A stretch of 64,000 nucleotides of DNA from PVC group bacterium. Its GTDB lineage: Bacteria; Omnitrophota; Gorgyraeia; B26-G9. Positions 12,576 through 57,343 of this stretch are shown here, in pieces; the stretch's first letter is position 1; every line of letters begins with the position of its first letter. The stretch covers positions 257,210-321,209 of the forward strand of contig JAAEQR010000072.1 in NCBI GenBank assembly GCA_024231215.1. Reading direction: 5' to 3'. A model generated the notes under the pieces. The model did no database searches and was not told where the DNA came from. It worked only from the letters and a program-made list of their open reading frames with translations. The position numbers and the translations under genes are program-made.

Positions 12576-12688
12576 GGATAGTTTTTATTAGGGAGATTCT
12601 GAACAGTGGTAAAAAAAAAGTCAAAATTCACACAATTATTTTTATTCTTATCCAGGCATTTATCCTGCCGGGTGGGCTAGGGGCGGGT

Positions 12689-18552: not shown

Positions 18553-18660
18553 ATAAATGTCTTAAAAAAGAGGGTAAAATATTTATAACTGATTGAAAAT
18601 AAATGTTGTTAGAAAAACAATTCGACAGTTCCGAAAGGACTGCTTTAAGGTTGGGTGGGT

Positions 18661-18704
18661 GGGCTGAAGATAGAAATTATCTTCAGCATGCCCTTTTTTG
18701 TTTT
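18661..18704 (+). terminator. Intrinsic terminator/attenuator inside the 5' leader of the giant gene
   Basis: gctgaagata (18663-18672) / tatcttcagc (18678-18687), a perfect 10-bp stem with loop gaaat, then atgccc + tttttt g tttt. It lies between the promoter (18524-18552) and the start codon (18749). Confidence 0.6.
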
Positions 18705-18748: not shown

Positions 18749-21700
18749 ATGGTGACTCGAATATTTCATAGTATAGTCTACTGCGGGCACAAATTATTGC
18801 ACATCTGCAGCGTTGTGCTTCTTCAGCTTTCTCGTCGTACCGCAAAGGGTACGCCTCCGGAAGCTTCAGTCGCACGCCTTGCATCTGCACAACACTTTGT
18901 GTCCTCGCGACGACAATACCATGAAATACCCGAGTTGCGCGCAAATCGAAAATACAAATTGTGGTTTCGAATCGTATCCGCGATACTTGTCCAGGCCTTT
19001 TTGGTTATGGATATCGCTATGGCTTCGGGCGGAGATTTGAGCTGGTTAAAAACACCTAAAAATCTATCCCGTAGTGAAAGTAAAATTTCCCATCTTTCTC
19101 CCACCACAAAAATCGATAAAGGAGTTTTCCGAAACAGCGTTGAATTATGGAGCGCTCTTGCTATAGCAATGAATAGTCCTGATAATGAAGAGCTGCGCAA
19201 GCCTTATGGGATTAGTGTTGTTGATGCCCACAATAGAATAATGTCTATAACGATGGAGAAGGAAGTATTATTTATTTATCGTCTTGATGATGCGCCAATC
19301 GCTTTTAAATTAAACCCCGTTCTTGAAACTACAACTAATAAGATGAGATTGGGTGAATTTGAACTTGCGACAGTACCGATTGAAGAAGTAGTTGAAGTAG
19401 GCGGTGATTTACTTGGATATGAAAGAATTATTACTTCGCAGGAGTTTGCAGAACGCTTAGATGCTTTAAACAGCGCGCCAGAGTTTAATGAAGAAGAGGC
19501 TTTGGAGCTGGTCAGACAAATGATATTAGCGGCTGGGATTACCGGAGAGATTAAAACTATAGGTAGGGATCAATATGCGAAATGGAAGCCGGAGAAATGG
19601 GATGTGCAAAAAGAAGCGACCAAGCTGATGTATAAAGGTTGTGTAGTTAATATGCCGACTTCGGCTGGAAAGACGATTGTATTTAATGCTACAGGGATTT
19701 TACGTAATCTTGCTAATAGATTACAAAAAGATAAGAAACGCGAAGTAACGATTGTGCATACTGAAGAAAATTTGGTAGAAAGAGATGCTATGCAGGCAAG
19801 CAAAGTAAATCAAAAGTTTAAAATGACTACCGGATATGTAATTTCTCAGGATGGAGAACGTAAGGCGTATATTGATAAAAATGGAGAGATGGAGGAGACT
19901 ACAGAGCAAGATTTGTATAAGAATGCAGATATTGTTTATATTCATGTTTACAATTTTGTGCATAGATTTCAAGCTGATTGTTATACCGCTAAAAAGACAG
20001 AAGATATCGCTTTGCTTTGGGGCCAACAGACTTATTTTATGGCTTTTGATGAAGGTGATGTTCCTTTAAAACATCATATGTCTACGCCGAGTGTTCTTTC
20101 CGGTGGTAATGATTTGATAGAGGGAATTAGGAAGATGCGATTGCATTTTGCGAAAAAGACAATGCAGATACAGGAGATTGTTGATGAACTTATTCAGGGT
20201 GATTTGTTAGATCCTGTTACTGGTAAGGCATCTAATAATTATTGTGAAGTACATAAGGATTCAAAGACGGTTAATCTGACCCCGAACGGTAAGGATTGGC
20301 TAAGAGCTAAACTCGAAGGAGTGAAAGAATATACTGAAAATAGGAATACAGAGATGGGAGATTTTGATCTATGGTTAGACTTTACAGAGTTGGCTTTATC
20401 TGCATATCGTTGTTATAAGATGGGTGTAGATTATAAGATAAAGGCTGATGCAAATGGCAATAATCAGATTGTAATTATTGATAAAGATACTGGTATGGAG
20501 TTGCCCGGACGGCGCTGGAGTCATGGTGTGGATATTGCCGTGCGTTTAAAAGAAAACCGTCAGGGAACTGAAAAACTTGAAATCAAACCGGATCAGATGA
20601 TTATTGCTTCAATGATGTTGCCGGAAATTCTTAGCTCTCAATTGGGGCTAGTTTCCGGGATTAGTGCAGCTTCTGCTACAATTGGTGAAGATACGGCCCA
20701 GATGTATGATATCAAATGGAAAAATCTTAGTGATCGTACAGAAGAATCAAAAAGAGAAGAGCGAATTGTAGTAAGTTCTGATCAAAAAACATCAGAACAG
20801 CATGCACTGGATATGATTGAGGTTTTAAAAGCTGGTAGTAAGGTAAAAGACTATATGCAGAAATGGGGCATGCCGGATAAAGATAAAACAGGTGCTGTAA
20901 TTATACGTTGTGATTCGGAACCTGAAGGAGCGAAGTTCACAGATGAGCTTATTCAGAAGACTACTTTAGGGCAAAGGAATATACTCAGAATAAAACGAGA
21001 TGGTACAATCGTAGATGCTAATGGTGAGCAGATAAAAGGGGCGAGTTTGCAGAATTTGGATAGTTTAATTGCAAATGATAGTATAGATAATATCTTAATT
21101 GATTTCAGCTCGGGTAATCAGAATATGTTTACTGATTTGACGGGAGAGAAAAAACTGAAAGATAAAATTGCGACGCTTTCTAAAGATAAGCGGGTTATTA
21201 TTGTCTCCACAAACTTAGTTGGTCGTGGGGTGGACTTTAAAGGTGATAACATGGTGTGTATTTCTTTGAGCTGTGATATTGCCGAAGAAAGTGAAATTCA
21301 GCTTAAAGGACGAGTTGCTCGTGACGGCAGAAAGGGGTACTTTTTTGGTTTTTGGTCGATTCAGGATGAAGTTTTTGTGAAATACAAAAAACTTATTCCT
21401 GACTCCCGGATGCATTTTTCGACAAAAGTAAAAGATGGTAAAACGCATATTTTTACCCTGACTAATGATCCTAAGAAATCAGTAGAAAGTGAAAGGCATA
21501 TTGTAGGAATGAGAGATGTTATTAATGATCATATCCAGCAAATGCGTCGTGAACAGAAAAAATTCGGAGAATCTTTATGGGATCCGGGCGATGATTCTGG
21601 ACATAAAAAGGGTTTTGCCAAAGAATTTGTGGAAAATAGATATCGTGTGCTTGTTCGCGGGCTACAGGGGGTGGGGATCCCTGAATTGGATGATATCTTA

Positions 21701-24700
21701 GGAGAGCTATATTACAAATGTGCACAAATAGAAGGGGAAAAAGGTGATGTTGATCCTGTCACACTTGTTGAAATTTTGGAGAATGATTTTGGAGTAAGTG
21801 GTTTTTCTGAGGAGGAAGCGCAGAGTGTTTTAAATAATAATGATTATAATTTAGAGAGGTCTTTGCATCAAATCCTTACTGAATTATTGCAGGCGAAAAC
21901 CTTAGATGTGTTGGACCAAGAATGGAAGAGCTTTATTACACAAGCAGACTGGATTAAACATCGTTTAGAAAAAGAACCTTCCCGCAAAGAACAACGTGGA
22001 AAAGTACAAGCGCAGCAGATCTATGAAGAAATTAAAAATAAGATAGCAAAAAGTTATGCGCAAACACAAAAGACAATAAAAGAACGTTTGGCAAAAGAGG
22101 TGATTTATCAAGCTGCTGCATTTGCCGGAAAACTCCCCACAGATAAAGAGCTAGCTGATTCTAAGAATGAGAGGGAAAAGGAGCAAGAGAAAGATAAGAT
22201 TCCTTTAATGGATCGTGCTAAACTTTTTCTGGTTAAGTTTATTCCTTCGGCTGTAGTTATGTCTTTAAGTATTATGACAGCGGTTGGGATTGGCTATGTT
22301 TTTAAAATTCTGAGTGTTGAAGGTGTTAAGGGGGTAGCTGCTTTGCCTATAGCCGGAAATATATTTGCTTGGTTTTTAGGGTTAGGTCCAATTATCCTGG
22401 TTACAGTTACGATAAGCACAATATTGATAGCCTGGGCGTTGAATTCCCATATAAAACGTTTGTCCCAGGTTGATTCGACGATTGGAGAGATGGCTGAAAT
22501 AGTTACCCAGGCATCTGAGAAAAAGATAAGTGAAATTGGTATTGTTTCAGCTAAGTCGACTTTACGAAAAGTGTTAACTGTAACAGCTACATTTGCTCCA
22601 TTTGTTGCGGCCATGACGTTATTTTCTTTTATTGCTAGTGTTCCTTTTGTTGGAGTTGTAACGGTACCTATACTTGCTTCTGCGGTGTCTGGGGTTATCG
22701 GGATTGTATCTGCTTCATTACTTTTGTTTTTGTCTCGTAAAGAATTAAAGATAGCTCCTACTGTTCCTGTGGGAGCAGGAGCGCAGTTTATGCGTGGCCT
22801 AATTTCTGGAACAATAACAGTTTTAACTGTAGGGGCATTTCTCTGGGTTTCTTCCTCTGTTCTGACAAATCCTGTTGCCTGGGGTCTAATAATTACCCTG
22901 GCTAGTTCTTTTATTGCTAATAGAATATTTAGAAAAGCAACAAAAGTTCCATCTTCAAATATTTTATTGCCTTTATTGGGATTTGTAACCGGAATAAGCC
23001 TGGGGCTTGGAATTATTTTCGGTGTGGTTCCTTTGTTGGGGGCATCGGTACTTAAAACCCTTCCGGGGGCAATGGCCTCGGGAGCAATGAAAGGTCAAGG
23101 GGTTCTTCAGATTCTGGCATATATGGCGTCAATGTTATTTTCTTTTAAACTAGTTAAATTTACTTTGGCTCAATGGAAGCTATCGGAAAAAATAGCGCGT
23201 GAACCTATTGTAGCAGATGGACAGCCAGTAGTAGATGTGTCAAAACAAAAAAGATTAGCTTACTTGACACGAGCATATACACTTAATGCAAGAATGGTAA
23301 TGATGGGTCTGGGCGCGGTTGTAACATTGGCTTTGTTATTTAATACTGGCTGGCTGGCGTTTCTTGTTAATCTGGGGATTCCGATATGGATATCCCGGGT
23401 TGTTGCGGCATTTCCTGTTTTTGCTGGGGCTATATTTATTGCTTTTCTTACGCGTAATATTCTTGGGGCCAGAAAGAAAGTATTTAATTATTCTTATTTA
23501 AGCAAACGTAGAGTATGGAATTTTGTTAGCCAAAGCGTGATAAATAAAGGTAATAGCTGGAGTTTTTTAACTATCCAAGCACAATTAGAACGTGTCGGGC
23601 TTAAAACATTATCTGAACATATCACTGTCGGTATAGATGATTTTAAAGAACGGGTTGCAGATAGTAAGCATGCTTTAGGTTTAGCGCATGGTATTTTGAA
23701 TAATATGGCTCAGAATAGTGGTATTAATGAGAAAGACAAGCTTATGCAGTTATTTCTTACTGAACTGCAGAATTCTGAGCCTGGGGATGGAAGATTCTTT
23801 TCGCAGAAGGAAATAGATAGTATTATTTCTCAAATGATTGCAAGAAGTCATGACAAATTGCTAAGTAAAAAACAGCGACGAGTGTTTAGAAAAGCAATGA
23901 CAGCTGTTTTGGTGGAAATGGATTTAGCAAAAGTTGGTTTAGCAAGATTGTTACATATCGTTAAAGATCAGGAAAACATAGATAAATTTCTTGATTCTCT
24001 TCTTATGCCTACGATGGGAGTTCCAATGCTTGCCACAGCACCAATAGCTGCGGTAGTGAGTCAGAGTCAACAAGAGAGCAGTCCTTATGATAAGTGTAAA
24101 ATTGATGTAAAAGATATTTCTAAAGATGTTCAAGATTATTATGTATCATTAGCTGAAAAGGCATTTAGGGTGTCTTCAGTTTCTGCAGATGATACGACTG
24201 CTTTTGCTTTAGATTATGATTGGGCTCAACGGATGAAATCATTTCAATCGGAAATGAGAATTACTAGAGCAGAACAACAGGCAGGTGATGAGTTTGCAGG
24301 GCGTATGGAAGCAGCGCATCAGAAAATTAAAAAAGCAGATTCTGAAAAAGAACGAATTGAGGCAAGGCTGGAATTAACCAGAGTAATTCAAGAAGCTGGA
24401 TTATCTGTAATCAAGAATATTGATCTTTCCCCAGAAGAATCTAAAGTTCTAGAGCAGGTAACTCAGAAACTTGAAGTAATAACAACATTAATAAGTATCC
24501 GGGAAAATATGGCGAGGGCTACCTATGATTTTAATCAATGGAGAGAACGCGAAGCAACAGAAGATGAAATAGTTCAATATGAGAAAGAATCAACAAAAAC
24601 AATGGCTGAGTTGCAGGCAGTGTTTGTTAAAAAAGCAAAAAGCGCCAATATAGATCCAGAATCTTCGACTGATGCAATTATAGAGCAGAGAAAAAATATT

Positions 24701-27700
24701 ATTGATTCCCTAGATAAAATCTCTGCATATATCATAATGCGAAAAAATGAAATTAAGACAGCAGACGAAGAAATCTTATCTTTAAAAATGGATAACAGGG
24801 ATCTGAAATTATTAAGACAGGCAGAGGATGCTTTGGATAAAACAGAAGAAGCTAAGGCGTCTGATAGAGATCAAACCTTGTCTCCAAATAAAACTGTGGA
24901 GTCAGATAAAGCTCAGTCAGCACCACCTCCGAAAGAGGAGTCTTCACAGAGACCAGTTGATGGAATTATAGTAAAGCCGGTGCGAGAAGAAGATGAATCT
25001 TTTGCCGGAGGGGTAAGCCGGGGCTTTTTTAATCAGGGCGCTAGTCTGCGAGATATATCGGAAATACTAAAAAGTCAGGATACTTCGGCGGCGGAAACAT
25101 TCAATGCGCTTATAAATTTAGGCGAAGGCCAGAGTGCAAAAAAGGTTGTCATCGCAATGCAAGAAGAAGGTGGCTATTCGGAAGAGGTTACTTTTTCTGT
25201 AGCGGTAGATGTATTGATGGTTAATCGCGGATTTTCTATTGAAGAGACTACCATGATGCTTTCAGATCCAATTGTCTCTGGTCAAAATATGTCTCCGGAA
25301 CAGATGAGAAAATCAAAATTAATTGCTAAGCTTTTGCATGATAAAGATGCTAATAATCAAGATCAATTGCGTAAGGCATTAGATATGTTACTACTTTTAC
25401 CGGGACAGTTGAATGTAACGAAAATGCCTCGACAGTTTGATGAATTTCTAAATCTTACGCCAAGATTGGACGAGAATCATTTAAAAGATAAGATTGCTGG
25501 ATTACGCAGTAAACTTGATAATGGCCAGAAGATAACAGAAAAAGATGTTGCAGAAGCTCATGAGATAGCCCAAGCTGCTTTAAAGACGTTTGCGTTAACC
25601 CAAAAGGCCCAGGAGCGAAAACAACTTAAAAAAGCAGATAAAGTTATAAGCCCAGAGGATAAGATAAAGCAAAAGACATCTCAAGATGATTCGGCTGGAC
25701 TGAGTGAATACATAACCGAAGAACTTACAAAGAGCATATCCGGGCGAAAGATATTGAAAAAATCTGCTAAAGGTATTGAGTATTTTATCCTGGTTAGTAA
25801 AGAGCTTAGATATTTGATCTCCGCAATACGAGCATATCATAGTGATGATATTAAAAGGGCAGAAGAGAATCTCACAAATATGTTCAAGTTAGCTTTTAGT
25901 AATAAAGAGGCCCGCGATTTAGTTTTTGAAGTTCTGGATGATATTGATTATGTTACTGCAAAGGGAAAAGAAATTTACAGTGCGAGAAGTGTCAAGGGTG
26001 AAGACAAAGATGCGCTGATTAAAGAGCTGGTTGAAAAAATTACTGCCGGCAGAGAACATTTTAAAGTTTACTATGATAATCTAAAGACTATTTTACAAAT
26101 TTCTGCGCGTGAGCAGGGGAATGAAGAACAATTAAGACAACAGCTGGAGATTCCGGTCCGGGATATCTTAAAACATTATTTTGCAGAGCAAGAGACGCGG
26201 CAGTATATTCTTAAAATTTTAGATAAAGCAGATATTGTGGGTTCAAAGGAGAAAAAAGCTTTTGCGAAGATAGATAATGTTACGGATAGGAATGCGTTTA
26301 TTGACAAGACAACCGCAATGATTATTACAGACTTGGCATCTCCTGAGAAATTGAAAAAAATGAAAGAAGCTTTATCTACAGTAGATGATTTAATTATAGC
26401 CAGACAGTTGGAAAAGTTGATCAGTACTGATACTAAGAAGGCTGATGCTGTAGCTACTAGTACTCCGGCTGAAATTGCGGTTGAAACTGCTACACATATG
26501 TTACCGCCTAATCTTGCCGAAGGATATAATCAAATTGCCAAACAGCTTGGACTGAAAACTTTAGCTGTCCCGGAAGATTTTCTCGGCCTTCCTATATATA
26601 AACCAACTATACAAGCTATAGAGACTGCAGAAAAAGGTATAACTACTATAGCAAAGAAGATACAACCGGTATTACCAAAGATTGAACCGCAGGGTAAAGA
26701 AAACTGGGAAATGCAGGATCTCTTGGTAATAGATAATTTGCGTAAATTACTCCAGGGCGGGCAGGATTCGACAGGTAGTTTGATACAGACTGGCAAACTT
26801 GAAGAATCTCCGGAAGTTCAGGCAGCAAAGGCGCGATTGCGTGAAGCTATTGCACGCTATGAAGAATTAGATAAGGCTTATTCAGCTGTTAATCGTGAAT
26901 ATAACCGTTATTTTGGCATGATTCAGAGTGGAAAATATTTTATGAGTCTTAAAAAGGCAGTTATTGAACAAAACGCTGTAGCAAAACTAAAATTGCAGTT
27001 GCAAAAACTAAAAGAAGTAGATAGGAAATTCAGAGAAACAGAAAAGCAGTTTATTGAGGATTCGATTGCTGATCTGGATGAAAAAATCAAAGGACTTTCA
27101 GGCCCGGATAGTGCAATAGTTGTAAATGACAAAATGCTTCAGGAAGCATTAGCTAAGCTGGAAGAACAGATCAAGCAAACAGAGGAAGATATTAAGTCAG
27201 CCGGAATAACAATGCAGAAGTTACGTATTTCATTAGCAGATTGGGAGCAGGCAAAACAAGATATCAGGGCAGGCGAAGAGATAAATCTGGCTAAACTGTT
27301 GGGTATGGTAGAAGAATCAGACCGTACCTATGCGAGAAATAAATTACAGGCTTTGGTTGCTGATATTGCTCAGTTAGATGCGGAAAAGGGTAGATTATCA
27401 ATTGATCCTAATCGTACTTTAATTATGACCAATGGTCAGATTAACGCTAATTTGGAGGTAGTTGGACAGGCAGAGCTTGACGAACGGGTCTTAGGGCTTA
27501 TGATTGCGGATAGCACAAAACAATGGACAGTCTATCGATGGGGCAATCGCCTGAGTCTTACACAGTTTGAAGGAGCTCAGACGATTAAGCTTCAACATTT
27601 TGTTTTTGGACAAGATGCACAAAGCATATCAGAGCGGGAGAAGATGTTTAGAGATGCGTTTAGATACTGGAGCAGTCAGATAGAGTGGGCAGAATCTGAC

Positions 27701-30700
27701 ATTAAATATCTTAGACATGACCGTTTTAATGATCCTAGTTTATCAGAGGAAGAAAAGGCAATAATCTTACGGCAAGTAGAGAACTTGGAAGATAAAATGC
27801 AGTTTGCTGTGGATACAATTGAGGATTTGAAAGAAGATCAGAAATACTGGGATCCATCAAAATTAACAGTTGATAAAAGTTTTGCAGAAAAAAAACGGTT
27901 ATCTGAAAGAAAACTAGGATTTGTTCAGAAAAAGGTTGTTTTCTTTAATGATCTTATTCCTCTTTTAAAAGATATGCGTGATTTTGACTTTAATCAGGCT
28001 ACAGAAGGCAGGACTTATTGGCAGACGGAAATAGATGAGAAAACAGCAGAGCTTGGCTTGATCGAAACCGAACTTACTGCTTTACAAGATCAATTGAACG
28101 TGGATCCGAATAATACGACTTTAAGGCAACAGATTGAAATTAAGAGGCATCAGGTTTCCAATGTTTTGTTATATATTGAGTACGCTGAATTATCCAGAGT
28201 ATCCGCTGAAAGTAATTTGCGCTATATTGGTTCATTGGGCGGAACAGAAAATAAGTCAAAGGTAATAGAGCGGTTTGAAACAGTTGCTAAAGCTGGGGAG
28301 GATTATTATTCAGATACAGTTGATTTGCTAAATGAGATGCTGAGCAATCAAACACTGGTGATTGATACAGCTACGGCTTACTGGCAAAATATACGCACAG
28401 AATCAACCCAGCGTTTAGAAGAAATTAGTGGTTATTTAGATCCGAATAATACAGCAACATTAGCGCTTGATCATCCGGATAATCTTTTTAATGAAGCAGG
28501 TATTGCGGTTTCAATTGACCAAAGAATAAGTTTTCAGATAAAAGTATTGGATCCGAATAATACAGAAAAAGATGCACAAGGTAACTATATTTCCGCAGCA
28601 AAATCTAAAGAGCAGGCATTAAAAGAGCAGGCAATCTATCGCCAGAGAATTCAAGCTGAAGTGGCAAAGCCGGAAGAGGAAAGAGATGAAAACCATGAAA
28701 GTCTGTTATCTCTTTGGAAAACAGAGATCGCTAAACGAAATATATATATGCGAAACGCTGACCTGCAAGTCAAAAAAGCTAATATATATTTGGGAACACT
28801 TGCTTTATTAAAAACAGCTTATCAAGCGGAAGAAAATTCTTTAGGAGTATTAATTCCGTTGGTGCGCAAAGAACTTGATACTTTAGCAAAAAATAAAGAA
28901 TATCTTTTGGGCACTTCATCGGAAAGCCCAGAGAGCTTGGTTGACAGGAATATTAGTTTGATTAATGATGAACTGGCTTTTTATCCGATAGCCAGAGAAG
29001 CTGCGGTTAGAAAGTTAGAGTGGTTGGAAAAGACAAAGAAAGACGCTGCAATTATTTTAGGAGAGATTTCACCTGAGAACCAGATAATAGCAGATGACTT
29101 GGCAAAAGAGCACGAAGCAACGAAGCAAGAATTAGAAAAACAATTAGCTAAAATCCAGGAGGCAATACAAGAAATAAATGAAGAAATTAGCAAGGCTGAA
29201 GGCTGGCTGGGAAAACTAAATGATAAAGATCATGATGTGCTGATCCGGCTGCGAGAGACCATGGAAACTCGCTTGAATATATTAGAAGATACTATTAGGC
29301 AAAAAGGAAAATTGCTTTATCAGAGTAATCTGCTTAAAGAGTCTCAACGTCAGATCGCTAGTGAGATGGCGGAACTTCGCAAACTGGGTGTGTTGGATAT
29401 TGCCGTAGCCAATATTGGCGAAGAGCAAAAAGATTCGTTCCCCATGGTTTTGGATAAGAATTCATTAGAAAAGTTAGTACGTAATATTCTGAATGATCCT
29501 AATCGGCCGCAGGATTTGGTAAAGGCAGCTGCCGGAGATCTTTCCTTGGACAATGCAAAGGGTATTCTGCAGAAAGTTGGACTGCACCTAAAACGGTTTA
29601 GTTTTGGTGAAGATTATTATATTGTAACGCATATTGCCAGCGGGGAGTATCAGGAGATGTATCTAAGGCTGGGCAACTTTTTTGGATCTGGAGAGCATGT
29701 AAAGATAAGCCCGTTTATTTATACGGTAATGGCGGATGAACCGCGGCGTGGAGCAGAAGGTATTGGATTGGTTATGGATGTTGATCCTCAAAACATGCCG
29801 ATTCATTACGGGTTAATAGTGGATGTTTATAAGCCTAAGTATCAGGAAGTTGGTTATGATTATACTTTAACTGAAGAAAAGACCCGTTTGATGATTACCC
29901 AGGACTACACGATGCTTATGGTTCCGGAACAGGATGATAAGGGTAAGCCTACGGGTGAATATAAAGCGTTTCTCGGCGCAACTATGTTTGCGGATATGCC
30001 GATGAATATGAAATTTCAGGAAGATATATCTTCTTTTGGCGGAAGCGTACGCGGAGATTTAAAACTTACCGAGGCATTTAAACTTAGAGCGGATTTGAGC
30101 GCTATTCTTTTAAGAGATCCATATGATGAAAATTTCGAATGGCAGTTTGGAGATCTCATGTTCCCGGATAGTATCAAGAAATATAAAGCTTCTGTCCAGG
30201 GACAGGAAATGCAGCTGCTTTCTGAACGGCTGGCTTTAGAAGTAGATATGTGGAAACTGCTCAAAAAAGAAGGTAAAAAAGATGAATTTACGATGCAGTT
30301 TTTCCTGCAGCATGAAGACAATACAGAAGGTTATACTCAGACTTCTTTTGGGGCAGGACTTACCAAGGCCTTTGCTTGGAAATTAGTACAGCCAATAGAA
30401 ACTAAGGTTGTATTGGAAGGTGCGGTTGGATCTGAAACAGAAGATATTAAAATTGGTATAGACAATCGCATTGGCGGTGATGATGGCGTTGATGTTTCCT
30501 TGTCCGCTAAACTCCGGGGTGAAAATCGCAGTTATCTGGCTAAAGTATCTAAGGATGTTTTTGGTGTAAATATGGCGGTGACTTATGGAGATGAATATGG
30601 GCGGGGAGAGCCTGTTTTTGGATTTGAAGCTGGCCAAACAGTTAGTAAGGAAACCGTAATTGCAGATTCAATAGATGCAAGAGATGCGGGGAAGGATATT

Positions 30701-39700: not shown

Positions 39701-42700
39701 AAGCGGTGTGGAAAAACCGGAGAAATTGTGGAGATTTCTAAAGGTGAATATAACAAGCAGAGACAGCAATGGGGGGATCAGACCCAGGTATATCATCGAT
39801 TTGTTGCCGAAGGAGATTCTAATAATATTATTGAACGCAAACAGACAAAAATTAGTGGTATTTATGGATATACAATGGATACGTTTGTGGATGATCTGTT
39901 AGAAGGGAGTCCTTCCAGTATACGCTATATCCCAGCATATAATGATGATTCTTATGAGATTGGCTTAAATGCCTATCTTAAAGATGATACAGGTAAACAT
40001 GGTATTAAGTTCCATGATTATACTGATTATATTTGGAATAATAATTTCTTGGCTCGGACCGTAGATTCAGGGACATCTTTTGTTCATACTGCGGTAATGG
40101 ATGGGGAAGGTCGTAACGTTAGAGAAATTAGAGGGAATTATAAGGTTAAGGTTGTGAATAAAACAGGGTTTGAAGCGGGAACTAATCGACCGCTTAAATC
40201 TGCAATGTTTGTGAATGAGAAAGAATGGATGAGTTTTGAATATGGCAAGACTGATCCAAAAACTAAAGTGCAGAGAGTAACAGTTGTTCCAGTTGATTGG
40301 GGATTGGTACATACAGAGGATTATCGTATTGGCGATATTTTTGCCCGGCCGTTTAATATTAAATATGAAGATGGTTCTGAAGTGTTTGTGGATAAATGGG
40401 TGGAGTATCGTAATATTCCGTTGCTTGCTCATACGGTTAATCGTTATGGACGTACAGTTCAGAGATCTGAATTAGATTCATTCCCTGTAGAAGAAGGGTT
40501 AAATCTTAGCAAAAATAGCATATATGAAGTTTCTTTATTTGACAAAGAAACTGTCCAGAGTGCTAAGGCTTTTATTATGGGGACTCCGGTACCGTATTAT
40601 CTCCTTGATGATTTTGATAAAACATATATGGATATGCGTAAATCTTATGAATCGCCATATTATACAATTGATACGCGTGGTGATTTTGGTAGGACGATGA
40701 TGTTAGATAACCAAGATTTGATAGAGAATGTTGTAAGTATATATAAAAGTGAATTGGATTTATATAAAGGAGAGAATAGTAGTGATCTTGTTAATGGGGA
40801 AGATGTTTTGCAGGTGCTCAAGGTTGATTTTGACGGCAAAAAGAGAGATAAAGCAACCCAGACAATCTATGACCGGCTGGCGAATCCGTTAGAGGAGAAA
40901 ACCGGACATTTTGTGGTTAAGAAAACAGCCCGGGTATATAATGCAGAGAATATTTTAAATGATGAAATTGATGAGACAGCTTTTTCACAACGGGCGGTAA
41001 TAGCTTATAATCAGGGATTATTACAAAAAGATGTGGAAGGTGATTATAATATATACAGGTTTGTTCCGGTTAGAACAGATGTTAAATTTAAAAAAGCTGT
41101 GGATTATAAAGTGAATTATGATCAGAAGTATCGGGATGTTATTACCGGTCGTATGGTATATCGTAGTATTCGTTCTTCAGATTTGTCCTTTACTCCGAGA
41201 AGTTTGGAGGGTGGGGATAGCGGGGATCCTTTTATTGCTTGGTTGCCTGAGTTTACTACCGAAAACTATATTTATCACAGTAGCAATCCGTGGATGCGGA
41301 ATATCCATAATCCGTATTGGGTTTCTCAGGATGTAGTTTCTTATCGGATAAACTATGGGGTAGAATTTGATGGAAATGGAGTTGTTCTTAATATTGCTAA
41401 ATCGTCATCTGATTTTTTACCGATTACGGTTAAAGGTCGGCAAATGTTTATAGGAGACATTCCTTGGCAGATGAGAGGTGTAACTTTCTTTAGTACAGTT
41501 AAAGGGAAGCAACTGGATACAGAGGAATATCTTACGAAGGCTGATATCTGGATAGAAGATATAGAGAAGATGGCGTTGGCTGGTATAAATACAGTAAGAA
41601 CTTCAAAGCCTGTGAGTGGAAATATTCTTAATGCTTTTTCTGTATATGGGATTAAAGTTATTGTTGGATTAAGAGAAGCTGAATACGAAGAGTATGTAGA
41701 GGAATTTAAAGGACATGCGTCGATATTAACATGGGATATTATAGATGAGGAAGATTATCCTGAGGATAGTGATCAGAGATATCGGAAGTTACAGCAAATA
41801 GCTGAGCATATACATGAGTTGGATCCGGACCACCCGGTAAGTACAGTACATGATGGTTTGTTAGAGAAAAAAGATTTGGATATAGCCTCGGCTATTGATA
41901 TCTGGGGAATCAATACCTCTCTATGGGATAATGGTGGACAGATTTTCTCAGAATGGGAAAGAATGTCTGATAAACCAATGTACTTATCTAGAATAAGAAT
42001 GGATTCATTAGATAATAGGAGACTTAAACCCGACCAAGGAGGACAGGCGGTTGCGGTATATAATCTTTGGAAACGTATAGATGAGAATAGCAGTATATAT
42101 TCCGCAGATAACGTGTGTTTAGGGGTAACATATCATTCTTGGGTGGATGAATTATGGCGTACAGGAGCCCCTGATCAACAGAATATTGGGGGAGAAGTGG
42201 ATAATGTTCCGTATGATGGGTTTACTAATATCGAATATACAGGTTGGAATAAATCCGATGGGACAACAAAAGATGTGTATAAACTTATGCAGATGGTTTG
42301 GACACATATTCCCATGGGGACTGCTTTAGCGGATAAGTCTATCCCAGGAGTAAAGATCAATACTAAACCAACAAGAGAAACTGTATATAAAGATAAAATA
42401 TGGTATGACCATAAAGGAAATAATAGTCTTGAAATTGTAGACGGTCTTTCTCCTCAAGGTTCTCCTATGGCGAGATATTCTTATACTTTGCCTCAGTCTT
42501 TACCGTCTTTGGAAAATAGTGTTACTTTTGTTCCGGTTGAAGAAGATAGGGAATTTACAGCTGTAAATTTAGCCATTAGTCCGGATTATTTGCAAGGAAA
42601 TGATTTCCTCTATTTTTACACCAAAGACATAGAAAATCCGTCTGCAGAAGTTGTTTTTATAGATGCTTTTGGGAAACAGCAAGTAACTGTTTCTGAAAAT

Positions 42701-45700
42701 GAAAAACACATGAAATTATGGGTTCCAATCTCACAAAATCAGGTGTTTGTGCCGGGTATGGATAAAATGAAAGAAGTTGTTTCTGTAGATTCTTCACGCT
42801 GGGATATTAAAAATAAACGACTTTGGGTAGTATCATTGGCACGATTAAAAGAAGTCTCTGAACTTAATGATGTACATAAACTCCAGGTAAGAATTGATGG
42901 AAAAACAAATAAAGATTCTCGCATTTCTACAATTGGAGTGTTGGGTAATAGTGAAAGAGACATGGATAAAGTGGAGACAACTGAAGTAACCAGGCTTAGC
43001 TGGGGGGATGGATCAACCATGATTGCTGCATTAAAAGATACCGAGGGCAGACCGCGGAGTATAGTGCAGTTATTAGGTAGAAAACATGAATATGAGACTT
43101 TGGCAACTTCTGCGAAGAAATGGAATGCTTTGTCCTTATTTACAAATAAAATGCAGGATCCGGAAGTCACAATATTCAGTGATCCTCAGAAGAAGGATTT
43201 TTCTGTTTCTCTTTGGAGTCCATCTGGTTATAAGTTATCAGGTATTCTTTTAAGTTTAAAAGATAAAAATAACGGTTCAATTGTAATTAAACTGGCGGCT
43301 CGTAACGCGTTTGAAACCCAGATGGTTATGGATTTTGAGCTTGGGTATGTACAGGGAGATATTCCGGCAAATATAGCGTATGGAACAGATGATTTCGTAG
43401 TTTTCCCAATTGGTAAGAATCCTGTGATTGCTAATATGAATTCTAATATTTTTAATAAAATTAATGACTTTTTACAGCAAAGGGTGGATCCGACTTTTAA
43501 ATTAACAGAAGAACAGAAAGAATTAATTTGGCATTATTCGCAAGCTGAAAATATGGTTAAGATTGTTGAACAGTTTCCGCTTGCGGATGAAGCTGTTTCC
43601 GGCAATGTTCCTTTTTATGCATATCCGGAATTTGAGAATGAGATTAAATCTAGAGTGCAACCAGAAAAGGCTTCAGATATAATTAACAGTGAGAGTATTA
43701 AAAATATTTTGTTACGATATGTTTCAGATCTTGAGGAAAGACTACAAGCAGGGCAGACTCCGTTGGTGCCGATTAATATTGGGACCTATTCAAAAGATAA
43801 TATAAACACCGAAGATTATGTTTCTACGGTCGATGAATTGGAATCTATAGTGCCGATGCTTGTGGACTTGGGGATGATTAAAGAAGCTGAAATGATCGTA
43901 AGGTTTTATATTGAAGAAGCGACTCAAAAAGGATTATATCCAGTATCTGATTATTACAATAGACAGACAGGAGAAAAAGAATATTTTGACGCATATTCTG
44001 CTAATGTGCTTCCTTCTTCGGTGACAGCCAAATCACAGATTGCTTTGGTCAATTCCTGTTTAATGATGATGCAGGTGACGGGCGATGCTTATTATTATAA
44101 GGCTGCGGAAAATACATTTGATCGTTTATTAGAGTTTAATCCGCAGATAAAAAATGCTATGCATAAGAAGGATGATGTTTCACTTTGGGAAAAAATCACA
44201 CAGTCTCAATTGGTGGAATTGTCTTTAGACTATCTCAACCGCAATGTAACTGTGGGTGGATTAACTGATCTAGAACCGAATTTAGATATGGATTATATTG
44301 GCACAAGGAAAAAACTTCCGGTACAGCCAGATTATTATCCGACCCAGACTAATAATAAAGCGTATCTTTTGCTATCTAAAATAAAAGATATGGCCGAAGA
44401 ACTACCAGATATGGGTGATTCGTTTTTACAAAAAGCTGTCTGGTTTGAATCATTACAAATAACATGGCTGAAAGATAATTTATTTAATCGTTTAGAAGAT
44501 AGTTCTCAAAAAGGCCTGATTCCAGATGGGATTTTTGACCTCTATAGTTCGCAGGGAGTTGAAGGGGCGGATGAAAATTATATTAAAACGCTGTGTCCTA
44601 ATCCGGTAGCTAATTTTGCTTCTTCAAAATCAACTTTAGAAGCAGCGTTGCAGGCTGGATACATTACTTCTGAGGAATTCAAAGTTATAGTAGATAATCT
44701 AGCTAAATATTTTCATAAAGAATTAGAGCTAGACGGCAAAAAGGTTAATGGTCTTGATTCTATAACACGTTTTATAGATAGGCCGGATTTAATCTTCCTG
44801 GATAATATGGTTGATTTACTAAATCTTGTTTCTAAAACTGGGGATAAAGAGGTCTGGGATCGAATTAGCCAGACTATAGATACATATCCTCTTAAAGATA
44901 AAATGTTGCCGACGGTTATTGCTGAGACTGACTTTTCTAAAGGTAGTGTTGATTCAGGCATTGGTTTTGATTCTGGATATGGGATATCCGGTAGACAATT
45001 CCGGGTTTTACCTTCGGCAGAAGATGATAGAAGCCCGCCTTCTTTGAAAGCTAGTATTGGTTATAGCTTTGCCAGATTACGGGATGGATACTCGCCTTAT
45101 TCTTCTAAGCTTGAAAAAGAAGAGAGGTTTGAATCTGAACGTAAAAAAGCGATAGAATATATCATTTCCGGTAGGGGAAATGAGGGGGATTTCAAACTTT
45201 TACTTAGTCCGAAAAAGCGCTATGGAGGATTATTTGGTATTGGCAGTACGCTTGCAGCTACGCTTATTGTTAAACTGGTGCTGACAATTATTGCTACTGT
45301 GATGTCGAGAAAACAGAGGCGAATAAACAGATTAATGAAAGACAGTAAATATAAAGGCAGTACTCCTGTGTATAAGCGGAAGTTGATCTATACAATGTTA
45401 GAACGGTATCGTAAACAGGTACTTAAGGTAGTAGAAGGAGCTCATTTTAAAGGGGTTAGCGTGGGAAAAGATAAAATTCTGAGTGCTACAGAGATAAGTA
45501 CATCTTTTAAGGCTACAGATGCTCATATTGAGGGAGCTTTTTCCAACTATCTATTTGTATTGAGAACGCTTGCAATGGAATGGGTAAGAAGAAAAAAAGA
45601 TTTAGGAGAAGAAGATGATGCTTTGCTAGTATCAGACCCATTTTTAGATAGTGTGGATGAATTAACTCTAATGCTGGGATTATTTATAAGGCAAGAGATT

Positions 45701-48700
45701 GTAAAAGGAGAAGATATTCAAATTCAAGGGAAGATAGAGGCTTATTTACAGCATTATGTGGTGCAGCTTAGACATATTTTGCATAAAAGAGATATTGCTA
45801 GCAAAGAAGGTAATCCAATGGATATGGATAAGCTGGATTCACAGTTTCAGAGGATTATAGCTGATTTAGGTATTCCTAATTTTGGAGATAACCCAGTAGC
45901 TTCTTCACAGGTAGTACCGTATATTGACCGGGAGCAAAGGCGGTATGTAATTAATTATTATGCTATTGCTTCCCGGGACATTGCTCAGGCGCGTCGAAAC
46001 TTGGCTAAGACTAGACAAGATTTTACTAAACAGAAAAAAATTCTTAAAGAAAAAGAAGCAACGGTACTTTCATCGCAAATGGCCCCAGAAAAAAAAGAAC
46101 AAATGCTGGCTGAGCAAAGATCAGTTGTTGTGAGTGCAGAGATAAAATTAGATCGAGAGAGAATAGAGTATGAAAAATTCAAGGAAAGATGGCGTTTAGA
46201 GGAAGCTAATAAGCTAGGAAAAGAACGGCAGGAACGTTTTGAAGAAAATTTTTTACCGCGGTTTGAACAATTTATAAAAGAAGAAAAACTAACTTCGATT
46301 GCTCCGGCAATTATGGAGCCGGCAATGTTCTTAGACCGTTTTGTTATGCTTTCTTTAACATCAATAATATCCGCTGTAACTTTTATCAGTTATACTGCTC
46401 CTTTAGTGGCTTTGAAAATTTCATTTTTAAATGCGTTTGGAGCATGGAGTCTACCGTTTTTAATTAGTATTGCTGGAGTTTTGGTTTTCAACACAGTGCG
46501 TGAATACCTGGCTCTTTTAAATCATGATCGGATTGACAATACGCCTCGGGGGAAGGTACTGAGCTACGCAACGGGTATTTTCTTATTAATAAGTGGGATA
46601 GTGATTGGTCAGATGATGCAGGTAACCTATTTAGATATGGCATTGATAAAGTGGCTTGGAGTATTTGTAATCATTGCTGAGAGTTTGAATTTGATAATGC
46701 CTCAGCTTTTTATGCCTGTTTATGCTTGGGTAAAAGACTCAGTTTTATTAATTTTTAAGGTTCCGTATGCTTTATTTCAGGCGATTTTTAATCCACAATA
46801 TTATATTAAAATATGGAAGGAAAATAAATTATTCAAAGAATTTTTCCCTACGGTTAATAAACTTAACCCAGCCGAGAGATCATCACATTCTTTACTAGGA
46901 ATAAGTGCGTATTATCATTTTAAACCTGGACTTGTGCTCGCAGATATGGCGATATTTGATAAGAAATCTTATGAGGGGCTTAGCAATAGCAAAAAGGCGG
47001 TTAAATTTGCAGCTAATTTGGTGCAAACAATTGGATCTATGCGGAATATATTTGTATATATTCTTTACTATGTCGCGATATTTTTTGTAGCTGCATATTT
47101 CGGGCAAGATCATAATATCTATGGCTGGTTTGTTACTCGTTTTGAAGCTGGTGAGATTCATAAAGTATTTTTTGGATTGACAAGCTATGTTATTTTATCA
47201 CAATATCTTGCTTCTTTTGCTATATTCATGTTTTTGACTGTAAAAATGTCAATAATCAAGAGTCTTGTGGAAGGGTTTAGATATAATGTCTGGTATCGTT
47301 TTACCAAATACACATTAACCGACGAAGTAAATGACAAAGTGGAAAATGCGAAGAAAGTGTTAAAGAATGACGGAGAGCCTAAATACTTCGCGATTATGAA
47401 TTTTGGAGGACAGTCAATGGTACCACCTTCTTTTAAGCTTGCTCGAAAGTGGAAAAATGTAGAGAAAGGCAAAAAGGCAGCAATACAGAATCTTTTAGAC
47501 CATATAGATATTCACTTGCAGGCAAAGACGCAGGGGTTAATGACACTATTAAAAACATACAATCTATTAGGTGATAGTCCAAGAAGGACAAAAGAATGCG
47601 TGTATGAAGTTTTAGATGCGTTAATCTCCCGAGAGATGGAGGAAAAAACTACACTTTTTGATCTAATCCAGTTAAATAATACTCAGTTACCGGAAGATTT
47701 GCAGGTCACGGCTAGTACAGACAAAAAGGATAAGCATTGCGCTGATAATGTGGCGATAGGATATTATTTGCGGCTCTATCTTACTGAGATGACCGGTGCT
47801 TCCGGAAATATGTCTTGTGCTGCGAATTTAGTTGCCAAGGCAATTAAAGTTAATGAACTGGGTCTATCTAAATATGCTCGCTTTATTATTTCACATAATA
47901 AATATAAATATGCTCCGGGGACTGATAATCCAACTAATCTTTTTGACCAGCATAGTGGTGAAGAGATTGTGGAAATAGCACAGAGAGACAAGTTGAAAAA
48001 ATTGATCTCTATTATTTCCGGAGGGGCATATGTTGCGGGTGAAAAGGAAGCTGGGGAAGTGCATTATACCTGGACTCATTTCGGGATGAAGTCAGCGGGT
48101 ATGAGCAGTATATTTCTCTCCAAGATAGTATCCGATACTAAATGGTTTTTTGTTGAAGACAGAGATGCTACAATTCCGGATACGGCTAGATGGTTATCTG
48201 ACGGAGCAACGATGATTGGCGATGAAAATATAGCGATAATGATTGCTAATCGCGATACCAGCTGGCATTATCATCCTACTTCCGAAGCTTCATTTTTAGT
48301 CGAACAGGGATTTTGTTCTACAGGAGCTAAAAAGACCTCTACTGGTTGGGGGAACCTTAAAAGGGAAACTTGGGGAGAAGCTCTAACGATGATATCATAT
48401 CCGGATTCTCCGGTTATGCCTTTAACCGGAAGAACGGGAAAGGTGCAGAAGCAGGAAGGAATAGGTTTTTGGAATAGGCTTTATAATAATCTATTTGGAT
48501 TGATTGGATTTATTCCCAATGCTATGGGGCAAAGCGAAGACCGCTGGGCAGCACACGAGACAGCTCATACCCAAATTGCGATGGGAGGTAATCCTAGGTA
48601 TGTTATGAGTAAGGGGATTTGGAATAAACTTCGAGAGACGAGTTTTGCTACACCTTGGACGCAAGCGCCGGTACGTTGGTCAGCTGGAAGACTTCAGGGA

Positions 48701-50941
48701 CTTAATGATTATATTATGCAAACAATTAATGAATTGGGTGGGGAAGCTATTTGGAATCGAGAGTATGATGTAAACGAAGGACGTTTTTATATCATTATGC
48801 CATTAGCTATGCTTACTGTATTTAGCGGGTGGCTTATGATTTTGTTTGACTTGACTCCGTTTGTGGGAATTAATGCTATTTTTTGGAGTATTGGAATACT
48901 TGCAAATCAGATACTTACTTTTCATGGACTTTTAGCTTATTTAAGAAAAACAGGATACGTTGCGCTAAGTGCAGCAGTGTTTGGAATTATCGGGATGGGG
49001 CTAGGATTTATGTCCGGTGGCATGCTGGGAGCAGTAATTTGGGGAATTGTTGGTCAGTTGTACGGAGGTTTTATTGTTGGTTTTAATGCTTGGATGTCTA
49101 AACGTATTCGAGATGCGGTTCTTTTTGCTTCGCGGGTGAACATTGAGACTTTTGCCCAGATAAAAGGACATATAGGAATTAATTTCGAATTTAAGCTTTC
49201 GGGTAAAGGTGGGGATAGTCCAGCTGTCCCGTGGATTGGTTTGTCGATATTCTATAATCAAAAAGCCAAAAAATTACAATTTATATCCATATGGAATCAA
49301 GATGAAAATAAAAAGGAAATAGATATAACTAGTTTGAATTTTATAGTATTTGTTGGTGCAGTTATTTCTGTGATTACTTTTTTAGTTATTCCGAAGCTTT
49401 CATTGTTAAACGTGATAATGACAATCCTTGGATTGATTTTTATTATGGGTATACCTATGGGACCGTTTTTAATGAAGCGAAAAATTGGAGAACATAGTCC
49501 CATAGGTGAGTTTATTGGAAAGAATATAGTGGGTTTTGGTGGCGGAGCTTTATTTCTTACGGCAATTTCTCTACTGGGACGGCATGGGGTGATGAGTGGA
49601 TTTGACATGTTGGTTTCCGGGGCGGGATGGCTATTGATGATTGCGGTGAATGTAATTCCAATAATACGAATAATTACTCAGTGGCAGTTTAGGGATGTTC
49701 CGGAAGGATCCATAAGTATTAATACATTTAGAGATCCTGAAACTGTAAAGAAGCTACACAAGAAGAAGGTCGATGAAATTGCTCGTAAAAAAGCTAAGAA
49801 AAATGCTAAGTTTAAGGTCAAAGAAATTACTCATAGACAAGCTAAGAAAAAGGCTAGGTTTTTGGAATGGCTATATCTTAGCAGGGATGCTAGAGTTACT
49901 TCTGAAACAGCGCGTGGTTTCTGGTGGGCGATGATTACTTTAAGTTGGTTTATACTTGTTCCTAGAGATGCTGTGATTACTGCGTCTTTTGGTAAATATA
50001 TGTCAGCTTTTCCCATTGCATTAGTAGTTAGTATTGTTACAAAGGGAATAATATATATAATTATAAGTGTATGGTTAGGTAAATTTGTTGAGGTTATCCA
50101 GACTCGTTGGTGGATTGCGAAATCTAATGCTTTGCGTCGGACAATACTGCCGTTAATTGAACAAGCTGTAAATTCAGGTCGTTACACGTATACTTTGAAT
50201 GAAATATTGACGCGTTTTCCTGCTATAGATAAAGGGATAAGTAATCGATCCTTCCGTCAGGTCAAAACGGCATATAGAGACATTCATAGGATGTTGAACG
50301 AATATGATAATCGTAATATACTTGATAATTCAGAGATAATTAAAATAAATGCTCTCGAGTTTTATAAAGTAGATACTAAGACAATTGTTGCGTCTCCTAA
50401 GGTGATGTCTGCATTAATTGGGATTACAGCGTTAATGGGATTAACTTATATAAATTATCAATTTGGATTTGAGGGAGTGGTTATCGGCATTCAGGCTTTT
50501 TCTAGAACGTTAAATACATTCGTGGCTCAACTGCCTTTCCAAGAGGGATTTGTTGCGCAGAATATCCATTGGCTTATAACTGCAGGGAGCGCGCTGTTAG
50601 GTCTTATCATTATAAGGTTAAGGAGAAGGTTCTTAAAGGCTGTCAGGGGTAGAAGCAAAGAGGATCTATTGGGAGGGGTGATGCCATATTTAATAAAGGG
50701 AAGGAACAAAGCTCCTAAAAAATCTTCACCTAAAAATGCTATAGTATCAATTCTTGAGGCATTTTCATCTGCTGCTCGGAAGAGGCAGGCAATAGTTAAG
50801 CCAACAGTTACTTCTTCAGATGAAAAATGGATAGAAGGAGAAGAATCAAAGGAACGTGGTTCTCCTCTTTCGGGGTTAATTAAATTAGATGATAGAGAAG
50901 AAGCAGTTCAGGAAAGTTTGTTGATTGAGGCTGCGATTTAA
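18749..50941 (+). CDS. Giant multidomain protein (10,730 aa): N-terminal extension + hydrophobic '[10 protein letters not shown]' motif, SecA-like ATPase module, ~10-helix membrane domain, ~1,700-aa coiled-coil-like tract, long beta-rich body containing a degenerate clan GH-A glycosidase-like domain, and C-terminal polytopic membrane bundles
   Basis: A single frame is open for 32,193 nt in AT-rich DNA, where stops should occur every ~20 codons, so this reflects selection. Domain calls come from motifs read in the translation (see sub-features). The start is uncertain: ATG 18749 has a weak SD, and in-frame TTG 18935 gives [22 protein letters not shown].., which fits the family N-terminus. Confidence 0.85.
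   Translation: [10730 protein letters not shown]
19430..21700 (+). other. SecA-like module within the giant protein (NBD1, PPXD-like insert, NBD2, start of helical scaffold)
   Basis: Blocks matching E. coli SecA from memory: WDVQ..[8 protein letters not shown] vs FDVQ..MRTGEGKT (Walker A, nt 19652-19675); NLVERDAM vs [26 protein letters not shown] vs [41 protein letters not shown] vs [21 protein letters not shown] (nt ~20042); VNLTPNG vs [42 protein letters not shown] vs [49 protein letters not shown] vs ATNMAGRGTDI (nt ~21206); [26 protein letters not shown] vs [28 protein letters not shown]. Confidence 0.8.
22200..23470 (+). other. Polytopic membrane domain (~10 predicted TM helices) immediately after the SecA-like module
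   Basis: Successive ~20-aa hydrophobic stretches: [216 protein letters not shown]. Confidence 0.6.
24150..29450 (+). other. K/E/Q/L-rich, heptad-like alpha-helical (coiled-coil-prone) tract of ~1,700 aa with short interruptions
   Basis: Composition and periodicity of the translation (e.g. [14 protein letters not shown].., [33 protein letters not shown].., [35 protein letters not shown]..); recurring LDPNNT/VDPNNT motifs around nt 28100-28560. Confidence 0.5.
41360..42030 (+). other. Degenerate clan GH-A (TIM-barrel glycosidase)-like domain inside the giant protein, paralogous to the downstream GH genes but lacking the nucleophile motif
   Basis: Aligns block-by-block with ORF 54692 and ORF 59001: MRGVTFFS vs [19 protein letters not shown] vs MGANVFRIYHH / [20 protein letters not shown] vs [21 protein letters not shown] vs VLMWVFGNENNY (acid/base Glu retained as DE); [14 protein letters not shown] vs [23 protein letters not shown] vs [18 protein letters not shown] replaces KPVLVTEYG (nucleophile TEYG lost). 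Confidence 0.55.
46300..50650 (+). other. C-terminal region of the giant protein with multiple TM-helix bundles separated by soluble segments and a highly basic K-rich linker (~49740-49870)
   Basis: Hydrophobic runs: [267 protein letters not shown]. Basic linker [38 protein letters not shown]. Confidence 0.55.
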
Positions 50942-57313: not shown

Positions 57314-57343
57314 GTGCTTATTAGAGAAAGGAGGAGCAAGGTG

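Follow-up and report, generated by a model that had tools for sequence, protein, structure and literature searches.

The window analysed here is a stretch of 64,000 nucleotides from contig JAAEQR010000072.1 of an Omnitrophota assembly (GCA_024231215.1, positions 257,210 to 321,209 of the forward strand). It contains a single open reading frame (ORF) for a protein of 10,730 residues, hereafter called the giant protein, whose N-terminal part combines a signal-peptide-like leader, a SecA-like ATPase module, a helical linker and a membrane domain of about ten helices. I refer to these first ~1,800 residues as the engine. Its features are as follows, with residue numbers those of the giant protein and NBD standing for nucleotide-binding domain:

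18749..50941, + strand: giant ORF, 10,730 aa, with an ATG start and zero internal stops
18935..19123, + strand: signal-peptide-like leader, residues 63-125 (hydropathy, leader hidden Markov model (HMM))
19028..19558, + strand: N-terminal domain of unknown fold, residues 94-270, conserved in the relatives P0008 and L082
19571..20113, + strand: first part of the SecA-like NBD1, residues 275-455 (Walker A, Walker B and TPSVLSGG; Pfam and profile matches)
20114..20584, + strand: SecA preprotein-crosslinking domain (PPXD), residues ~456-612 (PF01043, E = 4.6e-9)
20585..21388, + strand: remainder of NBD1 (motif III, SAASAT) and NBD2, residues 613-880 (Helicase_C, motifs V and VI)
21389..22198, + strand: helical linker, residues 881-1150, with a putative remnant of the SecA scaffold/two-helix finger (profile comparison, alignment by eye)
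22205..23470, + strand: conserved ~10-helix membrane domain, residues 1153-1574 (hydropathy peaks, AlphaFold2 (AF2) model helices, loop charges)
24002..24058, + strand: proline-rich, weakly hydrophobic conserved segment, residues 1752-1770 (hydropathy, alignment)

An earlier, sequence-only reading of this DNA had noted that one frame stays open for 32.2 kb, and this was borne out. The frame runs for 10,730 codons without a stop, while the alternative frames contain 826 and 1,227 stops over the same stretch, and the probability of such a stop-free run at the given composition is ~1e-378. The frequency of G at codon position 1 lies between 0.29 and 0.38 in all twenty-one 1.5-kb slices of the ORF, a uniform excess which indicates that it is coding in one frame over its whole length. 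A Shine-Dalgarno-like sequence, AAGGTGA, precedes the ATG, and an in-frame stop is found four codons upstream. An alternative start codon just ahead of the leader was rejected because the Shine-Dalgarno-like sequence is present only at the annotated ATG. The giant ORF is a genuine gene.

All the SecA motifs that had been quoted for the N-terminal part were located: Walker A, MPTSAGKT, at residues 302-309; NLVERDAM at 341; Walker B, DEGD, at 434-437; TPSVLSGG at 446; VNLTPNG at 508; GRRWSHGVD at 587, in a PPXD that carries VDY..IVIIDKDTG..PGRRWSHG; motif V, STNLVGRGVDF, at 820; and motif VI, QLKGRVARDGRKG, at 851. The distance between motifs II and V, estimated earlier at ~390 residues, is 386. 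The claim that this is SecA rather than a generic DEAD-box helicase is upheld by Pfam, by the PDB search and by profile comparison alike. SecA_DEAD (PF07517) scores 42.1 bits (cut-off 24.6), SecA_PP_bind (PF01043) 37.3 bits (cut-off 23.5) and Helicase_C 25.9 bits (cut-off 23.5). A PDB sequence search with the module returned SecA in all of its top ten matches, DEAD-box helicases appearing only at E > 0.01, and the best-aligned stretch was the PPXD stem of SecA. When compared by hhalign with a profile of seven canonical SecA proteins, residues 282-657 fell on SecA columns 82-416, that is, on NBD1 with its inserted PPXD, at 99.3 % probability and E = 8e-21. A word-indexed homologue search with the module returned canonical SecA alone (E ~1e-5), a scan of a genome-contig collection with it turned up no relative, and an AF2 model of residues 251-900 made without an alignment was uninformative (predicted local distance difference test (pLDDT) 37.5). 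Identity as a generic DEAD-box helicase is ruled out by the PPXD and the SecA-specific motifs, and by the generic Pfam DEAD model, which reaches only 23 bits, under its cut-off of 26.

By its motifs the module is a predicted intact ATPase, and it is far diverged from housekeeping SecA. In an alignment of nine diverged family members, Walker A (GKT), Walker B (DExD) and the SecA-type TPxxxSG are all kept, as are the PPXD stem (DY..IID..TG..PGRRWS) and motifs III, V and VI (TN..GRG.D and Q..GR..R); conservation of both the ATPase and the SecA-specific motifs over such divergence argues that the ATPase is under selection for ATP turnover. The NCBIfam equivalog models PRK12904 and TIGR00963 score 64.3 and 60.7 bits, against cut-offs of 814 and 800. 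The Cys-rich, zinc-binding C-terminal tail of SecA is absent: residues 1001-1500 contain 0.0 % Cys, and the module runs into the membrane domain. Since the equivalog scores are far below cut-off, the Cys-rich tail is missing and the chain passes without a break into a membrane domain, the module is, as judged from its sequence, a divergent SecA and not the housekeeping equivalog.

In canonical SecA, the two-helix finger is the element that enters the channel. The family block DQEW...GY...IYxEIK, represented in the giant protein by LDQEWKSF...QQIYEEIK at residues ~1040-1100 (window 21866-22048), lines up by eye with DQEWKDHL...LRGYGQ.DP..EYK of SecA. An hhalign comparison of the family profile with SecA that included the end of NBD2 gave 96.7 % and E = 3.4e-10; in it the helical wing region of SecA is covered by low-confidence gapped columns only, and the wing is not recovered with the linker alone. 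Pfam SecA_SW matches only one of 12 family members (E = 0.026), and structural echoes of the SecA scaffold in the linker model are weak. By profile and alignment, the linker keeps a putative remnant of the SecA two-helix finger.

The ~10-helix membrane domain reported directly downstream is indeed there. Hydropathy and the helices of the AF2 model place about ten membrane helices in residues ~1153-1574. Because Lys and Arg are concentrated in the loops assigned as inside (38, versus 3 in the outside loops), the block would have both its N- and C-termini inside, and the motor would lie on the cytoplasmic side. The sequence-only reading had suggested comparing this block with SecY/Sec61, but no similarity of residues 1153-1574 to these channels was found by sequence or by fold. 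SecY identity is thus rejected at the sequence level and unsupported at the fold level; ten transmembrane (TM) helices with both termini inside are not a SecY-specific feature. A word-indexed homologue search with the alignment of linker and TM domain gave no matches, and hhalign detected no similarity between this first TM block and the second and third TM blocks near the C-terminus. The conserved segment at residues 1752-1770 could be an eleventh membrane span or a start-transfer element.

An exhaustive homologue search with the SecA-like module, covering 1.84 billion representatives, yielded 194 proteins at E <= 1e-3, of which 22 were at E <= 1e-10. In 11 of the 17 nearest relatives, most of whose records are fragments, the module is followed ~200 residues on by 8-10 hydrophobic segments; in P0013 and P0016, 3-5 such segments follow. 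The loops of the ten-helix domain carry KRLSQVDS and LKxAPxVP...F.RG in the giant protein, the motifs common to the blocks of the relatives being KRxSQVDxS and LKxAPxVP...RF, and the blocks are collinear in the alignment; for the most distant members pairwise HMMER support is marginal. Two relatives at metagenome loci, L082 (42 % identity) and L081 (37 %), each known over 5,000-6,000 residues, align to the giant protein only over residues ~51-2036, except for a single weak stretch of 22 % identity outside that range in L081. Since similarity stops at ~2036, the engine appears to be conserved while the other ~8,700 residues are variable. On these alignments, the SecA-like module and the ~10-TM block are a conserved cassette across diverged relatives, and the remainder of the protein is not conserved.

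The engine begins with a leader that recurs along the locus. In the giant protein it consists of a basic stretch, a hydrophobic helix (IVSAILVQAFLVMDIAMA, residues 75-93), GG and then HLSP. The general pattern is a basic stretch, [IF]W[FV][KR][IV]I[AS]xxL[IV]Q[AT]F[LV]xx[DN], a small-x-small motif with GG and, ~15 residues on, [HY]L[AS]P. It is common to the giant protein and no fewer than three ORFs that precede it in the window (9639, 12689 and 15118). An HMM built from five copies detects copies outside its training set at E = 4.7e-12 to 7e-6, and finds three further ones in L082. The copies lie at:

9639-9830, ~12610-12770 and ~15300-15490, + strand: upstream leader copies in the window (HMM)
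L002, 8384-8560: leader copy at a related locus (HMM)
L005, ORFs 739, 3105, 6285 and 7515: leader copies at a related locus (HMM)
L082, ORFs 5277, 7516 and 9881: leader copies at a related locus (HMM)

This leader may be a signal peptide particular to the lineage, or may direct the sorting of proteins from this locus. Alternatively, it may act as an uncleaved membrane-targeting helix, as a peripheral or hairpin anchor, or as a ligand for the signal-peptide groove of the motor.

Beyond the engine, the giant protein has the following features:

23546..45238, + strand: middle region, ~7,200 residues without strong hydrophobic segments (hydropathy, periodicity, composition)
41441..42301, + strand: GH158-like (clan GH-A) TIM barrel, residues 7565-7851 (paralogy with neighbouring genes, PDB search)
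45248..50620, + strand: C-terminal membrane region, with a TM segment at residues 8834-8852, blocks at 9192-9507 and 10015-10451, and a TM segment at 10606-10624 (hydropathy)

Hydropathy shows no strong hydrophobic segment between residues ~1770 and 8834. Helical amphipathic periodicity peaks at residues ~1500-3500; between ~3500 and ~8500, most blocks are mainly strand-like in their periodicity. The succession of a helix-rich and a beta-rich part described in the sequence-only reading is thus supported at the level of crude propensity and periodicity measures. Self-BLAST revealed no internal repeats, and the middle region is almost without detectable homologues; in residues 1601-10730 the PDB sequence search gave only a weak GH158 match, and Pfam likewise only the barrel. 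That barrel, where Pfam GH2_C scores 21.2 bits and barely exceeds its cut-off of 21, is paralogous to the neighbouring genes 54692-56587 and 59001-60272, which resemble GH158 beta-1,3-glucanases (PDB 9oro, E = 1.6e-8). In the alignment the acid/base Glu is kept, but where both paralogues have the nucleophile motif TEYG the giant protein has SRIR, in agreement with the earlier description of a GH-A-like barrel that lacks its nucleophile. Since the nucleophile Glu is replaced, the barrel is probably a binding module and not an enzyme. Both paralogous genes have short basic-then-hydrophobic N-termini, judged by eye to be signal peptides.

Some 30 hydrophobic segments are present in the whole protein, whose last ~1,900 residues contain three more membrane blocks. 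The second set of TM bundles claimed for the C-terminal part stands, but the poly-Lys linker said to accompany it turns out to be a loop rich in Lys (12 K in 30 residues, within residues 10329-10368 of block 10015-10451) and not a homopolymer. The syntenic L002 locus of an Omnitrophota metagenome-assembled genome (MAG) also has a giant ORF, with whose C-terminal part residues 9726-10318 share 28 % identity. Cys makes up 1 % of the leader and ATPase part and 0-0.2 % per 500 residues after residue 1000 (window 21749-50941), residues 9501-10000 being the exception at 0.8 %.

Two candidate expression signals lie ahead of the gene:

18524..18552, + strand: near-consensus sigma-70-type promoter (TTGACA, 17 nt, TG-TATACT), ~200 nt 5' of the giant ORF (consensus match only)
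18657..18704, + strand: hairpin with a 10-bp stem and four further pairs, followed by a U-run, in the 5' leader of the giant ORF (minimum free energy (MFE))

The promoter agrees with the consensus at 11 of the 12 hexamer positions and has an extended -10 TG. The hairpin has an MFE of -27.7 kcal/mol (z = -2.76 against shuffled sequences); together with its U-run it is terminator-like, and could be a putative transcription attenuator ahead of the 32-kb gene.

Downstream lie genes for an MFS_2 sugar transporter, two GH158-like proteins, three tandem 220-aa paralogues and a TPR/PKD protein. These genes are 72-82 % identical to Candidatus Omnitrophota MAG contigs, with conserved order. Records for the ten nearest homologues of the SecA-like module describe hypothetical proteins throughout; nine come from Candidatus Omnitrophota/Omnitrophica MAGs and one is labelled only 'bacterium', and nine of the ten are marked partial, at contig ends. 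By these similarities, the host is an Omnitrophota bacterium. The segment 53217-60272, with MFS_2, two GH158-like barrels whose catalytic motifs are intact and the three tandem paralogues (56569-58879, 39-73 % identical to one another, with a weak 'choice-of-anchor J' match), is syntenic in L002 and L005 and is probably a beta-glucan uptake cluster.

The upstream neighbours matched almost nothing in Pfam or NCBIfam, and ORF 3945-5534 had no PDB sequence match. Relatives of three of them occur in L081 (JABUBN010000020.1, 1-18772), where a single frame is open for at least 6,257 aa. A domain that precedes the SecA-like module there is homologous to window ORFs 159-3746, 3945-5534 and 7818-9539, which are paralogues of one another (24-28 % identity to the L081 domain, E down to 3e-45). 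Because genes that are separate in the window are fused to the giant in L081, a functional link between them is implied, along with frequent fusion and fission of modules. ORF 3-3746 enters across the left edge of the window, is at least 1,247 aa long and matches no Pfam family with confidence; it may represent the C-terminal end of a further very long gene. ORF 62164-64000, which runs off the right edge, has a PilZ domain (24.9 bits, cut-off 22.5), then a TM segment and a weak GH76-like region, and could encode a membrane protein responsive to cyclic di-GMP. Counting only large ORFs free of overlap with a longer one, all 16 lie on the + strand (a minus-strand ORF of 151 aa is contained in 159-3746). 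Every 2-kb slice has a positive GC skew and the cumulative skew climbs monotonically, which fits one long co-directional leading-strand block. Scans of the window for tRNA genes and Rfam families were empty.

Omnitrophota are the richest source of giant proteins of this kind, and a predatory or episymbiotic lifestyle has been proposed for the phylum. How bacteria bring proteins that range from 10,000 to over 100,000 residues through a membrane is an unsolved problem. The giant protein may bear on it. I give somewhat more credence than doubt to the reading that it is an inner-membrane protein whose N-terminal motor helps to export the protein's own variable region, most simply via SecYEG. The engine would be ordered as a signal-peptide-like leader, a motor that is catalytically intact as far as its motifs tell, and a family-specific ten-helix domain. 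The latter would replace the soluble C-terminus of SecA, with its lipid- and SecY-binding parts, and tether the motor on the cytoplasmic side. The cassette would be translated and inserted first; ATP and the PPXD clamp would then feed the emerging, fast-evolving downstream chain through the cytoplasmic membrane, for which the housekeeping SecYEG would be the simplest route. The motor would serve in export, and the middle region, which includes a catalytically dead glucan-binding barrel, would lie outside the cell or on its surface, where it would probably bind glycans of prey or substrate and serve in attachment. Such an external glycan-binding role fits the adjacent genes for glucan degradation and sugar uptake as well as the proposed lifestyle.

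Several observations weigh against export of the protein's own chain. The AF2 model behind the ten helices is of medium confidence only (pLDDT 61). Taken at face value, these helices return the chain to the cytoplasm, so that the middle region could be exported only with the help of an additional start-transfer element, for which the weak segment at 1752-1770 is the sole candidate. The leader resembles a cleavable Sec signal peptide, with a basic n-region, an 18-residue core and AMA|SGG; a literal signal peptide would put the ATPase outside the cell, in conflict with the topology from loop charges and with the conserved ATP-binding motifs. The comparison of the linker with SecA is weak once the end of NBD2 is removed (E = 4e-4, 35 % probability for the helical scaffold and helical wing domains), and the fingertip GY/Tyr, kept in P0008, P0009, L081, L082 and L083, is replaced by KEQRGK in the giant protein. 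Finally, unlike at many published loci of such giants, no Pfam match to type II secretion or pilus genes was found in the neighbouring ORFs scanned within the window.

In a second reading the motor has been repurposed for a task other than export. The tethered ATPase would then do other mechanical work, such as remodelling or tensioning a largely cytoplasmic giant scaffold or moving some other polymer, and the middle 7,200 residues would be cytoplasmic. The topology of the ten helices, after which the next strong hydrophobic segment comes only at 8834, and the loss of the fingertip Tyr are in keeping with this, as is a 2026 preprint in which nearly half of the long Omnitrophota proteins are read as inner-membrane-anchored with cytoplasmic domains (10.64898/2026.06.07.730766). 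However, the best-conserved SecA-specific part of the module is the PPXD, the preprotein clamp; the barrel is paralogous to neighbours with N-termini that look, by eye, like signal peptides; and the region past residue ~1000 is almost Cys-free, compared with 1 % Cys in the motor. I regard a motor without a role in export as rather unlikely.

At the other extreme, the motor and the ten-helix domain might together form a self-contained accessory translocon, a motor plus channel independent of SecYEG that would export leader-bearing neighbours as well as its own downstream region. SecY has ten helices with both termini inside, and the membrane block is like it in count and orientation. Motor and block occur together as a conserved unit, a putative remnant of the two-helix finger is kept, and the leader is common to the giant protein, window ORFs 9639, 12689 and 15118, ORFs beside the L082 giant, L002 and L005. 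By contrast, similarity to SecY/Sec61 is absent in sequence and fold, and the hydrophobic region of the leader is possibly just that of a lineage-typical signal peptide. The likeness to an accessory Sec system is an analogy, and the published genomes that carry giants keep SecYEG, together with SecB and SecD (10.1101/2023.11.21.568195). A translocon of this sort is decidedly unlikely; if real, it would combine motor and conduit in one polypeptide, with locus-specific recognition of the leader, and would explain the megadalton surface proteins of ultra-small predatory bacteria.

A chimeric assembly, a decaying gene or a product cleaved or translated as several proteins, any of which would leave the fusion without functional meaning, is very improbable: the organism is uncultured, modules fuse and split among relatives (in L081, the upstream-gene family is fused in frame) and possible proteolytic processing of giants has been discussed (West-Roberts et al. 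2023, 10.1101/2023.11.21.568195), but the coding signal is uniform and free of stops over 32 kb, leader, SecA-like module and TM block occur in the same order in independent assemblies (P0008, L082), a giant ORF is also present at the syntenic position in L002, and a Pfam scan of the giant protein found neither a C39 nor an S8 peptidase domain.

The window offers a comparatively small and complete example of such giants, with a putative engine that is compact, N-terminal and well delimited (~1,800 residues). The engine is small enough to be expressed, which makes the published idea of self-export testable, and the neighbours that share the leader are candidate clients. As SecA fusions are already in the literature, this is not a new kind of system; its architecture is striking and mechanistically open.

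How the giant protein relates to known systems is clearest for its parts. The barrel shares the clan GH-A fold and the acid/base Glu with GH158 endo-beta-1,3-glucanases (PDB 9oro) and differs from them in the replaced nucleophile Glu (SRIR for TEYG). With housekeeping SecA (TIGR00963 / PRK12904), the module shares NBD1 with the inserted PPXD, NBD2, all ATPase motifs, TPxxxSG, PGRRWS and a putative remnant of the DxxWxxHL...GY...EYK scaffold/finger region. It differs in its low identity (~25 %), in the absence of the zinc-finger tail and in a wing domain that is not demonstrable; moreover, the giant protein adds a leader and a 180-residue unknown domain in front, and a polytopic membrane domain and ~9,000 residues behind.

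The accessory SecA2/SecY2 system of Gram-positives exports very large serine-rich adhesins that bear special signal peptides. As an analogy, the concept of a dedicated SecA paralogue for a giant surface protein with an unusual leader may be shared. Motor, channel and cargo are separate proteins in that system, and SecY2 is a clear SecY homologue, whereas here a single polypeptide is involved, without SecY similarity and in a different phylum.

The closest likeness is to other giants of the same phylum. Contrary to the sequence-only reading, which knew of no SecA in a membrane protein of >1 MDa, two preprints describe such giants. West-Roberts et al. 2023 (10.1101/2023.11.21.568195) reported that giant membrane proteins of Omnitrophota and actinobacteria contain divergent versions of the SecA DEAD and preprotein-binding domains; in most full-length giant genes of Omnitrophota, the two domains come with numerous TM regions. 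The SecA domains of the giants fall into a long-branched clade of their own, separate from the normal SecA that these genomes also encode, and the authors propose self-export by these domains, with the neighbouring TM regions as anchor (10.1101/2023.11.21.568195). Of the 916 Omnitrophota proteins with 10,000 aa or more in the 2026 preprint, 20 make up a PF07517 architecture cluster (10.64898/2026.06.07.730766). The giant protein belongs to this already described class. It shares with the published Omnitrophota giants the phylum, the very long single ORF, the many TM helices and the long-branch divergence from housekeeping SecA; in both, Pfam detects SecA_DEAD and SecA_PP_bind and does not detect SecA_SW; and glycoside-hydrolase-type content, nearby sugar-uptake genes and the self-export hypothesis are common to them. 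At 10,730 aa it is shorter than the >30,000-aa set of 2023 and falls within the 2026 catalogue of proteins of at least 10,000 aa. Having no Pfam matches to dockerin/TSP3, glycosyltransferase, methyltransferase, NUDIX or peptidase families, it is neither an 'Archaeovorin' nor of the 'Dockerin-type'. Its SecA-like module is N-terminal with the TM block after it, type II secretion genes are absent from the window, and profile comparison points to a finger remnant, whereas the 2023 paper reports the scaffold and wing as lacking. Four elements of the present locus were not found in the texts of the two preprints: the homologous ten-helix partner domain at its fixed position, the ~1,800-residue conserved engine as set off from a variable remainder, the putative finger remnant and the shared leader.

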